DNA of 64,000 nucleotides, taken from Patescibacteria group bacterium (lineage in GTDB: Bacteria; Patescibacteriota; Patescibacteriia; UBA9934; GWF2-40-263). The stretch lies in NCBI GenBank assembly GCA_041661745.1, contig JBAZTR010000002.1, positions 132,368 through 196,367 on the forward strand. Reading direction: 5' to 3'. Shown piece by piece: positions 3,241 to 59,466 of the stretch. Positions within the stretch are counted from its first letter, which is position 1, and each line of letters begins with the position of its first letter. The translations under genes and the position numbers were made by a program. The notes beneath the pieces were generated by a model. The model searched no databases. It had not been told where the DNA came from and was given only the letters and a program-made list of their open reading frames with translations.

Positions 3241-3327
3241 GGGCGAGTGGCGGAATTGGTATACGCGTAGGTCTCAGAAGCCTATGTCTGCAAAGACTTG
3301 AGAGTTCGAGTCTCTCCTCGCCCACCA
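3241..3327 (+). tRNA. tRNA-Leu (anticodon CAG), long variable arm, encoded CCA
   Basis: Cloverleaf GGGCGAG..CTCGCCCACCA. Anticodon loop CTCAGAA. Long extra arm TGTCTGCAAAGACTTGA. Confidence 0.8.
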
Positions 3328-3419
3328 AGCTTAGCTTGGCCCACCATTGAGAGTTTCCCGCCTTTGGCGGGACCCCGCCGAGGCCACCGAAGGCGGGGCG
3401 AGTCTCTCCTCGCCCACCA
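3328..3419 (+). repeat. tRNA-associated GC-rich double-hairpin element followed by a 20-nt duplicate of the tRNA-Leu 3' end
   Basis: TCCCGCCTTTGGCGGGACCCCGCC..GGCGGGGC at 3356-3398. Exact copy of GAGTCTCTCCTCGCCCACCA (tRNA 3308-3327) at 3400-3419. Confidence 0.75.
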
Positions 3420-19732: not shown

Positions 19733-19965
19733 TTACCTTCCTCCTGTGACGATTATCGAATCGTTACTTTGGTCGAGCACAATATCATAATAAAACTTAA
19801 AGGTCAATACTAAACCAAAAACCGCCCGGTTTAATCCGAGCGGTTTTTTATTTTTAAGATTGGTGCGTCGAGCTGTGCTCGACTCGCACCATCGAGCTTA
19901 TCTGACTTCTATGCCAGGCAAAAGCTAAGCTTTTGCCATTGTAACAGAAATCGAGCTAAGCTCGA

Positions 19966-20042
19966 TGGTGCGCCCAAGACGATTCGAACGTCTGACTTCT
20001 TCCTTCGGAGGGAAGCGCTCTATCCAGCTGAGCTATGGGCGC
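19966..20042 (-). tRNA. tRNA-Arg (anticodon CCG), encoded CCA
   Basis: Reverse complement reads GCGCCCATAGCTCAGCTGGATAGAGCGCTTCCCTCCGAAGGAAG..TTCGAATCGTCTTGGGCGCACCA. Anticodon loop CTCCGAA. Confidence 0.8.
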
Positions 20043-20264
20043 ATATTATTTTGTTGCGCCTAGCGAAGCTGGCAATTTTTCCAGCTGCCCCGCCGACGGT
20101 GGCCTTTGGCGGGGTCCCGCCAAAACGAAGTGACGGCGGGAAGCTATGGGCGCATATTATTTTGTTGCGCCTAGCGAAGCTGGCAATTTTTCCAGCTGCC
20201 CCGCCGGCGGTGGCCTTTGGCGGGGTCCCGCCAAAACGAAGTGACGGCGGGAAGCTATGGGCGC
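20043..20264 (-). repeat. Two tandem 111-bp units, each made of a tRNA-associated GC-hairpin element plus a 12-nt copy of the tRNA-Arg 5' end
   Basis: AGCTATGGGCGC (reverse complement of the tRNA 5' end GCGCCCATAGCT) recurs at 20031, 20142 and 20253. The units differ by a single A/G. Confidence 0.85.
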
Positions 20265-20406
20265 ATATTGTTTTGCCCTCTTCTGTAAGCTCATACTGTT
20301 GAGCTACGAAGTCCACCGAAGCTCCGAAGCCTATAGATGAAGGCGAGGAGCGAAGGTGGGTGGGCGCATTAAACGAGAGCTTAAACCTCTTTTTTCAACA
20401 AGTCAA

Positions 20407-26439: not shown

Positions 26440-26694
26440 ACTGCCGTTCGCTACAATTCAATTTTTCAAGAAAAAAGGCTCATTCATCCAGTCTTTGGAG
26501 AATGGGTTTTAAAACTCCAGCGAACAACGATCATTCACAATTGAAGACCTGCAACAAACAAGCAAAAAGAATCAATTGTCAATTATACGATTGTAACGTC
26601 TATCAATGACAAATATTTAACTCCAAACAATAACGGAGCTAGTCATTTCTCAGAGTTCCTCCGAAGCCCGTAAGGGCAAAGGGGAATTTCTTCT

Positions 26695-28187
<1,493 letters not shown>

Positions 28188-28406
28188 AAAGGAATCCGAG
28201 GCTTAGGCCTCTATCCTATTAGGTCGACCAGTTAACCGAGTTCGCTCGGCTTAACAGGCAAGGATCAGTCTCGCAAGAGAATGATTTACAGACGTTACAA
28301 TCGTATAGAAGACAATTGCTTGAAGACACCTGAAATATGGTGTTTTTTGTTTATTTTTCCTCTTGACCTTATTGGGTTAATTTTCTATAATATCACTCGT
28401 CAATAC

Positions 28407-28488
28407 GGGCGTGTAGCTTCCCCCTTCGCCTTCGGGCTTCGGAGGACAGGCAGCTGGTCCAGCTTCGCTACACGTTCAAAAATAACCC
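28407..28488 (+). repeat. 12-nt duplicate of the tRNA-Ile 5' end (GGGCGTGTAGCT) followed by a 70-nt tRNA-associated element (TCCCCCTTCGCC..CAGCTGGTCCAGCTTCGCTAC..)
   Basis: Exact repeat of tRNA nucleotides 1-12 lies immediately upstream of the element, and the element abuts the intact tRNA. Confidence 0.8.
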
Positions 28489-28565
28489 GGGCGTGTAGCT
28501 CAGCTGGTTAGAGCGCAACACTGATAATGTTGAGGTCACAGGTTCGAGTCCTGTCACGCCCACCA
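28489..28565 (+). tRNA. tRNA-Ile (anticodon GAT), encoded CCA
   Basis: GGGCGTGTAGCTCAGCTGGTTAGAGCGCAACACTGATAATGTTGAGG..CACGCCCACCA. Confidence 0.85.
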
Positions 28566-28567
28566 GA

Positions 28568-28642
28568 GCCGAGGTAGCTCAGTGGTAGAGCAGAGGACTG
28601 AAAATCCTCGTGTCGCGAGTCCGATTCTCGCCCTCGGCACCA
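28568..28642 (+). tRNA. tRNA-Phe (anticodon GAA), encoded CCA
   Basis: GCCGAGGTAGCTCAGTGGTAGAGCAGAGGACTGAAAATCCTC..CCTCGGCACCA. Sits 2 nt after tRNA-Ile. Confidence 0.8.
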
Positions 28643-28797
28643 CACCACGTCGCTGCATTTTAAATGGAGCTATGTGGTGTGTCCCTCCGAAGTCCTGCCT
28701 GTGGCGGGACGAAGGGGGACATCAAAACATCCAGACTCGTTCTGGGTTTTTTGTTTTATCCATGTTATACTCTTTCCGACAGAAATCTTATAAATAT

Positions 28798-29868: not shown

Positions 29869-29947
29869 CGGGCCGTAGCTTCCCGCCTTTGGCGGGACCC
29901 CGCCAGAGGCGGGGCAGTAGTTTTTCTTCGCTACGGCTGATAAATGT
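29869..29947 (+). repeat. 12-nt duplicate of the tRNA-Pro 5' end (CGGGCCGTAGCT) plus a 67-nt GC double-hairpin element
   Basis: TCCCGCCTTTGGCGGGACCCCGCCAGAGGCGGGGCAG..CTTCGCTACGGCTGATAAATGT directly precedes the intact tRNA. Confidence 0.85.
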
Positions 29948-42487: not shown

Positions 42488-42521
42488 CCCCCTTCGTCGA
42501 GCCTAGCTCGACTTCGGAGGG
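42488..42521 (+). repeat. CCCCCTTCGTCGAG..CTCGACTTCGGAGGG hairpin motif (copy 1)
   Basis: Shares CCTTCGTCGAG and TCGACTTCGGA cores with the copy at 44204-44241. Confidence 0.6.
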
Positions 42522-52669: not shown

Positions 52670-53995
52670 ATGCCGACCATCCAAACCAATCCCCAAAATA
52701 TGACATTTTTTGTACTCGGTTCTCACCCGGCCCTTTCGGTCGCAGAAATTGCGAACGTGCTTGGTGTGGAAATAAACCACTCACAATATTCAAAAGAAAT
52801 TTTATTGCTCGATGAAATCGGCACTTCACCCGAAGCCCTGCAAGGTCGTTTGGGTGGTACGATTAAAATCGGCGACATTGTCGGCGAAGTGAACCCCCCT
52901 TCGCCGGGCTTCGGCGGGGCAAGAAAAATTGATAAGGAAGAGGTCGCTGATCTTTTTGTTTCGCTTCTCGCCCACCCCTCACCCCTGCCCCTCTCCCTGA
53001 GGGAGAGGGGGGAGGAGGAGAGGGGTAACCGTGTTGTTTTCGGCATCAGCACCTATTCACTCGATGCCCACCGCGATCTTTCGACTGAAGTCAAACAAAT
53101 TGGCATGACCATAAAAACCAAGTTAAAAGAAGAAGGCCGAACCGCTCGTTTTGTTTCGACCAAAACTGCCGCCCTGCCAAGCGCGGCGGTGACCGGCGAA
53201 AAGCTTCTGGAAAACGGAGCTGAATTTGTAATCATTGTCTCTAAAGAAAAAATATACCTTGGTCAAACCCGCATTGTGCAGGATTTTCAAAGCTGGTCAG
53301 CCCGTGACTACGGTCGACCGCGTCGCGATGCCAAGTCCGGCATGTTGCCGCCAAAACTCGCGCGCATGATGATTAATTTGTCCGGCGCCAAAACCTCGGC
53401 TGCTTTGCTCGATCCGTTTTGTGGCTCGGGCACAGTGCTTATGGAAGCGGCGCTAATGGAATTTACCAATCTTATCGGCAGTGATATTTCCGAAAAAGCC
53501 ATTAAGGACACAACAATAAATTTAGATTGGTTAAATCAAAACGAAGAAGTTGATACTTCCGGAATTCGTCTTTTTAATAAACCAATCGAAACCCTGGCCG
53601 GAGACTTAAAAGAAAAAGTTGAGGTGATTGTCGGTGAAACCTATCTCGGTCCACCGCTCTCGGGTCGCGAAACACCGTTTCGACAAAAACAAATCATGGA
53701 CGAGCTGCTTGAACGCACCGCTTCCGGCCTGGCCGCCTTACTTCAACTTCTTAAAAAAGGTGGAACCGTGGTTTTGGCTCTCCCGGCTTTCTGTGCCCGC
53801 CATAGCCCGGCGACGGCGGGTCAGAATGGAAAAAATATTCAATATCTACCAACCAAAAAACTGGCCGAGGCCGTTGGTTTACAAATTGTTCCCTTCACCG
53901 GCGAACCAAACGAGGTTTCGCCTAATGGTGGGCTACTGTATGTTCGTGAAAATCAAAAAGTGGGAAGAGAAATTGTGAAAATGGTTCTTAAATAA
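52670..53995 (+). CDS. THUMP-type class I SAM-dependent RNA methyltransferase (RlmL/Trm11-like) with an in-frame palindromic insertion
   Basis: Motif I LLDPFCGSGTVLMEAA preceded by MLPPKLARMMINLSG. Low-complexity insert HPSPLPLSLRERGEEERGNR encoded by the palindrome at 52988-53010. Confidence 0.55.
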   Translation: MPTIQTNPQNMTFFVLGSHPALSVAEIANVLGVEINHSQYSKEILLLDEIGTSPEALQGRLGGTIKIGDIVGEVNPPSPGFGGARKIDKEEVADLFVSLLAHPSPLPLSLRERGEEERGNRVVFGISTYSLDAHRDLSTEVKQIGMTIKTKLKEEGRTARFVSTKTAALPSAAVTGEKLLENGAEFVIIVSKEKIYLGQTRIVQDFQSWSARDYGRPRRDAKSGMLPPKLARMMINLSGAKTSAALLDPFCGSGTVLMEAALMEFTNLIGSDISEKAIKDTTINLDWLNQNEEVDTSGIRLFNKPIETLAGDLKEKVEVIVGETYLGPPLSGRETPFRQKQIMDELLERTASGLAALLQLLKKGGTVVLALPAFCARHSPATAGQNGKNIQYLPTKKLAEAVGLQIVPFTGEPNEVSPNGGLLYVRENQKVGREIVKMVLK

Positions 53996-59396: not shown

Positions 59397-59466
59397 ATTC
59401 GAGGAGATCCACCTTCGCCGAGCTTCGGCGGACAAGGAGTCCACGATTGCGAATCCTGTCCATGTT

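Follow-up and report, generated by a model that had tools for sequence, protein, structure and literature searches.

Why should a tRNA gene be preceded by an exact copy of its own beginning? This question is raised by the tRNA-Ile(GAT) gene of a Patescibacteria group bacterium (genome of 0.98 Mb, 45.6% GC and 50 tRNA genes), of which we analysed a stretch of 64,000 nucleotides, hereafter called the window. As the first-pass annotation of this DNA had reported, GGGCGTGTAGCT at 28407-28418 exactly repeats 28489-28500, i.e., nt 1-12 of tRNA-Ile(GAT), the two copies being spaced by 82 nt from start to start with 70 nt (28419-28488) between them. Matches to this 12-mer with at most one mismatch amounted to 3, versus 0.10 in dinucleotide shuffles. 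The annotation had also considered that the element might be absent from independent assemblies; instead, two groundwater runs carry it identically, since positions 28190-28516 were covered without any difference by contigs of two DNA runs from different groundwater studies (one of which may be the source sample), and the unit is thus not an assembly artefact. The parts of the locus are the following.

28322-28357, plus strand: terminator-like hairpin and T-run downstream of 16S (9-bp stem, T-rich tail)
28363-28391, plus strand: sigma-70-like promoter TTGACC-17-TATAAT of the tRNA-Ile/Phe unit (11/12 matches)
28407-28418, plus strand: exact copy of tRNA-Ile nt 1-12, of which nt 1-11 are the 5' strand of the closing stem P1
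28419-28450, plus strand: GC-rich 'TTCG-type' hairpin (P2) of 32 nt, inserted between nt 12 and 13 of the copy
28451-28458, plus strand: copied tRNA-Ile nt 13-20 (CAGCTGGT), forming the 5' side of hairpin P3
28459-28477, plus strand: 3' arm CCAGCT-TC-GCTACACGTTC, in which CCAGCT pairs with nt 14-19 and TC is a linker
28478-28488, plus strand: A-rich spacer ahead of the intact tRNA-Ile
28489-28565, plus strand: intact tRNA-Ile(GAT) (ARAGORN, Rfam)
28568-28642, plus strand: intact tRNA-Phe(GAA), 2 nt past tRNA-Ile (ARAGORN, Rfam)
28682-28719, minus strand: reverse-oriented TTCG-type hairpin copy, in the tRNA-Phe trailer
28729-28757, plus strand: terminator-like hairpin and T-run, end of the tRNA-Ile/Phe unit

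Taken as a whole, the Ile unit (82 nt) is a copy of tRNA nt 1-20 split by a GC hairpin, plus a complementary 3' arm; within it, CAGCTGGTCCAGCTTCGCTAC occupies 28451-28471 and is followed by the A-rich box. The intact tRNA, which had been taken as the insertion target, is not where the hairpin sits: the hairpin lies inside an extra, partial tRNA copy, and since tRNA nt 13-20 continue beyond it, the 12-nt repeat is not a target-site duplication. Note that the ARAGORN and Rfam calls around the unit correspond to the intact tRNAs alone, the unit itself being scored as neither, and that Rfam returned no match at E up to 1 in 28380-28500, nor any at the gathering threshold.

Regarding its transcriptional setting, the segment had been placed in the spacer between 16S and tRNA-Ile. 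In our analysis, it is not part of a spacer transcribed together with 16S: a terminator-like site and the TTGACC-17-TATAAT promoter intervene between the 16S rRNA 3' end (28185) and the unit, which consequently lies in the leader of the tRNA-Ile/Phe unit, with its pseudo 5' end 16 nt past the -10 box. As a side observation, the 16S gene has its own terminator-like site (both within window 26689-28357), the tRNA-Ile/Phe pair forms a separate promoter-driven unit and 23S was not found within the 64-kb window, so that the rRNA genes are apparently unlinked. It was also observed that a gene for an MgtC-like membrane protein and extra hairpins separate tRNA-Ile from tRNA-Phe in three other genomes of the genus, G001 (locus L016), G004 (L017) and G002 (L018). 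Metatranscriptome contigs matched conserved tRNA parts from other organisms only, and none of them covered the unit.

The Ile unit is one of many in this genome. Indeed, 14 of the 50 tRNAs have their own first 12 nt within 400 nt upstream, versus 0/50 downstream and 0/50 as the reverse complement, and non-cognate 12-mers match in 6 of 2442 comparisons, solely where a real neighbouring tRNA lies. For these 14 tRNAs, the first 12-23 nt are repeated 79-357 nt upstream, in units of 79-132 nt without an ORF and 314-357 nt with one. Four stretches of the window illustrate this recurrence.

3347-3419, plus strand: mirror-image case downstream of the intact tRNA-Leu(CAG), a 3' fragment comprising its T-arm, acceptor 3' strand and CCA
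20043-20264, minus strand: two near-identical 111-nt sibling units upstream of tRNA-Arg(CCG)
20265-20367, minus strand: diverged third Arg unit (unit 0)
29869-29947, plus strand: sibling short unit upstream of tRNA-Pro(TGG)

The Arg(CCG) units (minus strand, 20043-20367) and the Ile unit have in common the TAGCT|TCC junction, the CAGCTGG..CCAGCTTCGCTA tail and the A-rich spacer. The 111-nt units read tRNA nt 1-12, CCCGCC double hairpin, nt 13-20, complement arm and A-rich spacer; unit 0 reads nt 1-7, TTCG-type hairpin, TAGCTCA/TGAGCT hairpin and a partial closing arm, and a TTGACT-17-TAAGCT promoter (20406-20378, read by eye) lies ahead of it. The 34-nt double hairpin of the Pro(TGG) unit (29881-29914) is identical to that of an ORF-bearing Thr(GGT) cassette. 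The 3' fragment of Leu(CAG) bears a double hairpin (3356-3398) in its T-loop and is one example of such mirror-image fragments downstream of tRNAs, and Gly(CCC) and Leu(TAG) are preceded by nearly complete pseudo-tRNAs that contain hairpins. Overall, nearly every tRNA fragment inspected has a GC hairpin in its would-be D-, anticodon- or T-loop, and intact tRNAs are never interrupted.

Several other tRNA-related oddities were recorded along the way. Outside the window, tRNA-Met and tRNA-His are followed downstream by 3' tRNA fragments whose T-loop is interrupted by a longer repeat of ~130 nt (G000:C2:43255-43433 and C2:202600-202786; G000 denotes this genome). Three odd tRNA-like genes (G000:C1:95898-95970, C1:241212-241287 and C5:11624-11700), labelled Ser(TGA) or Pro(TGG) by ARAGORN, start with GGGCYCGTGGAGGTAAYG and have a common upstream box, TTTTTGGGAGYTGTTTTGTTTTAT. 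The tRNA-Asn trailer (L026, G000:C1:25942-26160) contains three to four hairpins, all of which terminate with a copied tRNA 3' end (GGCGGAGCCA), and a GIY-YIG ORF comes after them. Finally, the metagenome contig L169 holds tandem near-full-length tRNA-like copies, each with 2-3 different hairpin inserts in the D- and T-loops, which are the most insert-laden pseudo-tRNA copies seen in this analysis.

The first-pass annotation had explained the repeats by a small, transposon-like element with TAGCT|CAG in the D-arms of several tRNAs as its recognition site, where it would insert and duplicate 12 nt. Its view of the Ile unit as a third, diverged member of one architecture agrees with our data, since the 12/13 break (TAGCT|C) is common to 11 units at 9 tRNA genes of this genome; an identical 34-nt hairpin at 12/13 in Pro(TGG) and Thr(GGT), hairpin families that are dispersed or repeated, and junctions that mostly read T|C point in the same direction. 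However, the supposed single target position is only one among many, breaks being also found at 7/8, 15/16, 16/17 and 23/24, in anticodon loops and T-loops as well as in hairpins of non-tRNA origin, and the repeats have no fixed length (11-36 nt). Moreover, the tRNA sequence resumes past the insert (nt 13-20, 13-24 or 16-31 in different units), which leaves no target-site duplication, the intact tRNAs escape interruption altogether, and the 'end' of the element differs with each tRNA, being its complement. For the whole unit, this model is already contradicted, and we regard it as very unlikely.

The nature of this 3' end was examined through the predicted RNA fold and the covariation of its stems. 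The Ile unit would form an 11-bp acceptor-like closing stem on a three-way junction with two hairpins (MFE -31.3 kcal/mol, z -2.56), in which GCTACACGTTC of the 3' arm pairs with nt 1-11, including two G-U pairs, the copied D-loop nucleotides pair with CCAGCT and the insert folds back on itself as a hairpin at the junction; the sibling units (z -4.9 to -7.2) give cloverleaf-like folds closed by a long stem. In an alignment of 13 units, which represent 8 different tRNAs, pairing within the closing stem and D-loop hairpin reached 86%, versus 21-49% in slid controls, and the covariation score was 0.284, versus 0.114 in shuffles (0/500 shuffles as high). As an example, the arms match as CGTGTAGC with GCTACACG for Ile and as ACCCATAGC with GCTATGGGT for Arg in relatives, and the D-loop arms as CAGTTGG with CCAACT versus CAGCTGG with CCAGCT. 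Hence, what had been read as a shared 3' terminus is not an element end; in each unit, it complements, and covaries with, the 5' end and D-loop of the tRNA concerned. Some 3' arms retain remnants of the tRNA 3' strand and ACCA; the complement of the acceptor might in part descend from a tRNA, but that of the D-loop cannot.

The comparison of orthologous loci revealed presence/absence polymorphism at a conserved tRNA-Ile leader. The G002 locus is empty (promoter, 22-nt leader, tRNA) and G004 also has no unit there, whereas the leader is filled in this genome (full short form), in G001 (unit whose inner hairpin is swapped and whose 3' arm is truncated) and in the metagenomic locus L166 (short unit like that of this genome, with compensatory changes in the insert stem), and it holds an ORF remnant in L167 (see below). 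Similar turnover was found elsewhere: the Arg units of G001 and G003 have a TTCG-type insert where this genome has the double hairpin, and a Val(GAC) unit occurs in G002 alone, this genome having none. Nine copies of the signature TAGCTTCC..TTCGCTA of the strict form were counted in this genome; each of four same-genus genomes has one and a single genome from a different genus has two, and a search of 67 further genomes from this family gave none.

These folds and losses bear on the possibility that the Ile unit is a functional structured leader RNA tuning RNase P processing or tRNA folding, either as an acceptor-stem mimic (the 11-bp P1 being about as long as the acceptor/T-arm stack) or as a two-state leader, in which the 3' arm pairs with either the copy or the real tRNA 5' end. 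The stems covary across the 13 units of 8 tRNAs with G-U tolerant substitutions, they are kept between species when loops and spacers diverge, and the z-scores range from -2.6 to -7.2. The 3' arm could also pair with the real tRNA, a pairing that is preferred when leader and tRNA are folded together at equilibrium, but in this thermodynamic prediction the acceptor was paired in the same way with shuffled-arm controls. Furthermore, the P1 complementarity may partly come from the tRNA's own 3' strand, the P1 3' arm is lost at tRNA-Ile in G001-type relatives, G002 and G004 do without any unit, and the strict short form is almost confined to one genus. An RNA function as the primary explanation of the unit therefore appears rather improbable to us, though less so than the transposon-like model.

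The inserted hairpins belong to families that behave differently in the genome. The CCCGCC double hairpin lies within 400 nt of a tRNA at 14/14 loci (3.7% of the genome qualifies), whereas the TTCG-type hairpin, i.e., P2 of the Ile unit, has 24 genome copies (one near-identical to P2 at G000:C1:353655-353681), 15 of them away from tRNAs and mostly intergenic. In the window, TTCG-type copies far from tRNAs are located at 42488-42520, 52895-52917 and 59409-59431, and the 52895 copy may be inside a coding region. A third family with a AGCTTAGCT core has 20 genome copies; such hairpins also abut the 3' ends of tRNA-Leu(CAG) and tRNA-Arg(CCG) (window 3324-3340, 19919-19935 and 19950-19966), and another lies inside the Ala(GGC) unit. 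A CCCGCC hairpin in the RNase P RNA (window about 8662) was considered as an insert and rejected, as it is a native helix.

A feature missed by the first-pass annotation is the link of these units to genes for small GIY-YIG nucleases. The 64-kb window has no such ORF, nor does one lie beside the tRNA-Ile of this genome; genome-wide, we found six, of which five adjoin tRNAs and three stand between a 5' copy and the intact tRNA. Indeed, in 3 of the 14 cases described above (Glu-CTC, Ser-CGA and Thr-GGT), the ORF separates the hairpin-bearing fragment from the intact gene. The ORFs encode 80-96 aa consisting of the GIY-YIG domain alone (Pfam GIY-YIG, E 7e-18), with catalytic residues Y5, Y16, R26, H30, N31 and E62 invariant in 20 sequences. 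Among solved structures, UPF0213 EF2693 (E 1e-6) and BH0048 come closest, SLX1 being a weak match; NCBIfam has no specific family for the nuclease, and its matches in Protein Atlas are generic GIY-YIG clusters only. Note that the Thr(GGT) ORF (L024, G000:C4:3362-3598) has one in-frame TGA where relatives have Arg and is thus probably a pseudogene.

The same association was observed on a larger scale. At the order level, the ORF is present in 102 of 121 genomes sampled, and among the best 30 order loci it lies at most 290 nt upstream of a same-strand tRNA in 26 (25 of them at 4-60 nt), the first 11-36 nt of the tRNA and GC hairpins preceding it in at least 22. Among 80 loci of public genomes (mostly Patescibacteria MAGs, with Uhrbacteria as best match, and some Ignavibacteria, Bacteroidota and Omnitrophota), a tRNA lies just downstream of the ORF in 62 and the 5' copy is found in 39. 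GC hairpins border the ORF directly on its 5' side in at least 22 of the 30 and in 39 of the 80 loci, its 3' side being occupied by the tRNA, and ORF lineages group by the isotype of the neighbouring tRNA (38 label changes versus 54.7 in shuffles). The cassette is widespread in the tRNA gene leaders of ultra-small groundwater bacteria.

The case that ties the tRNA-Ile unit itself to this cassette, and which we consider decisive, is locus L167, obtained by scanning metagenomes for the Ile unit. There, the partial tRNA-Ile copy is split into nt 1-12, 13-21 and 22-38, first by a TTCG-type hairpin at 12/13 and then by a second hairpin, and is followed by a 39-aa ORF and the intact tRNA-Ile. By hhalign, this truncated ORF corresponds to the C-terminal half of the nuclease family (probability 96.4, E 1e-9). 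ORF-bearing cassettes, L167 included, lack the closing 3' arm (P1/P3); hence, loss of the ORF alone does not account for the short form, on which selection of its own may act.

The strength of this linkage also weighs on another reading, in which the segment is a decayed tandem tRNA duplication, i.e., a pseudo-tRNA, and the GC hairpins are unrelated REP-like passengers mobilised by a RAYT-like transposase. The hairpin-bearing pseudo-tRNAs upstream of Gly(CCC) and Leu(TAG), the 3'-strand and ACCA remnants in some 3' arms and a single RAYT/IS200-like Y1 transposase ORF with the HUH motif HIHGI (G000:C2:212613-213194; L021:1614-2195; outside the window) are consistent with such decay. However, hairpins are present in nearly every fragment inspected, the double hairpin is confined to the vicinity of tRNAs, the D-loop complement has no possible source in a tRNA, and the link to GIY-YIG ORFs is very tight. 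The RAYT-like ORF itself scores 54 bits, under the curated cut-off of 80, and comes with its own palindrome of 28 nt (GTAGGGACAACC..GGTTGTCCCTAC), located inside its coding sequence and different from the tRNA-flank hairpins. We give this reading little credit, about as little as the transposon-like model.

Altogether, we favour, with a probability of roughly 0.6, the reading that the 82 nt represent a tRNA-leader nuclease/hairpin cassette in its short form, devoid of the ORF. The full cassette comprises a promoter, a partial tRNA 5' copy split by one or more GC-rich hairpins, a gene for a single-domain GIY-YIG protein of ~80 aa and the intact tRNA, and would represent a selfish nuclease-plus-hairpin element of the Ssn/SRM kind lodged behind tRNA promoters. 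The hairpins would be the single-strand DNA recognition sites of the nuclease and may spread into the loops of stem-loop-forming DNA, and an intact tRNA would be kept because only part of the gene is duplicated. At tRNA-Ile, where the ORF is absent, the remainder would be transcribed as a leader from the promoter at 28363-28391, fold into the 11-bp acceptor-like stem with two hairpins and be removed by an RNase P cut at the true 5' end. Both the movement of the cassette and its role as RNA are inferred. To our knowledge, a plain GIY-YIG nuclease cannot transpose alone, and any target sequence persists in the intact tRNA, which fits poorly with the classical homing model; both points count against this reading, as do the absence of a nuclease ORF from the window and from the vicinity of tRNA-Ile, the missing closing arm of ORF-bearing cassettes and the lack of enrichment of the published SRM consensus (see below).

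More tentatively, and with clearly less confidence than the cassette reading itself, the tRNA-leader cassettes may constitute a distinct, undescribed class of mobile elements in the tRNA genes of Patescibacteria and some other phyla, possibly moved by single-strand hairpin-directed cutting followed by duplicative repair that always leaves an intact tRNA. The ORF-less forms would then be non-autonomous derivatives evolved into acceptor-stem mimics, maybe processed by RNase P or gating tRNA maturation. If the cassette reading is true, a small nuclease family recently characterised in Neisseria gains a new and very specific niche, namely the tRNA gene leaders of ultra-small bacteria, there is an explanation for the partial tRNA copies that flank some 20 of the 50 tRNA genes in a streamlined genome of 1 Mb, and testable nuclease-hairpin pairs become available. 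For annotators, it would mean that tRNA-flanking fragments in such MAGs are real features and neither assembly noise nor integrase scars, and one may ask whether such leaders influence the processing of tRNAs.

Small GIY-YIG nucleases with hairpin repeats are already known, and the tRNA-leader architecture was not met in the literature searched (GIY-YIG with tRNA, tRNA fragments, Patescibacteria), in which a paper on prokaryotic tRNA gene fragments covers integrase and CRISPR cases. Like integrase-type islands (attL/attR), the Ile unit places a partial tRNA copy beside an intact tRNA gene. In such islands, however, it is the 3' part of the tRNA that is duplicated, at both ends of a kilobase-sized element encoding an integrase, whereas here 5' parts lie upstream, the units measure 79-132 nt (314-357 nt with the ORF), no integrase is present and, at tRNA-Ile, nothing is encoded in the 70 nt between the repeats. 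Repeats with a partial tRNA copy beside the intact gene also occur at tyrT of Escherichia coli, but downstream of the tRNA, in contrast to the 5' parts found upstream here. As in REP/BIME sequences with RAYT and in IS200/IS605, GC-rich imperfect palindromes are dispersed, hairpin clusters are mixed and one RAYT-like ORF is present; unlike in REP/RAYT, the double hairpin is confined to tRNA flanks and the partners are GIY-YIG genes, not a Y1 transposase. T4 SegB is a free-standing GIY-YIG homing endonuclease of a phage tRNA gene cluster, and the cassettes resemble endonucleases of this type by a GIY-YIG gene beside conserved tRNA genes, a patchy presence and lineages that track the neighbouring gene, but differ from them by the lack of a DNA-binding domain, by the hairpin repeats and by the duplicated tRNA 5' end.

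The closest known system is Ssn/SRM, in which single-domain GIY-YIG nucleases of ~94 aa bind the single-stranded form of GC hairpin repeats (NTS/SRM) and cleave next to these repeats (Chenal et al. 2025, PMC11893778). The Ssn genes are usually flanked by NTS/SRM repeats, a layout described by these authors as IS-like, and the main text of their paper never mentions tRNA (PMC11893778). Ssn proteins belong to CDD clade cd10448 and cut only single-stranded DNA, next to the hairpin; the proteins described here are putative counterparts that resemble them in domain content and gene layout. The SRM consensus (HGTCWY..YYVSBRH..WNVSBRG..RNCYNB) was not enriched in this genome (2 matches versus 4.65 in shuffles), with none at tRNA flanks. 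In both systems, single-domain GIY-YIG proteins of about 80-95 aa are encoded next to GC-rich hairpin repeats of 20-50 nt that are dispersed in the genome, and the stem cores are of a similar kind (TCCCGCC..GGCGGGA here, TTCCCGCG..CGCGGGAA in Ssn). In contrast to Ssn, the hairpins of the cassettes lie inside partial tRNA copies, and the nuclease gene is placed 4-60 nt upstream of an intact tRNA.
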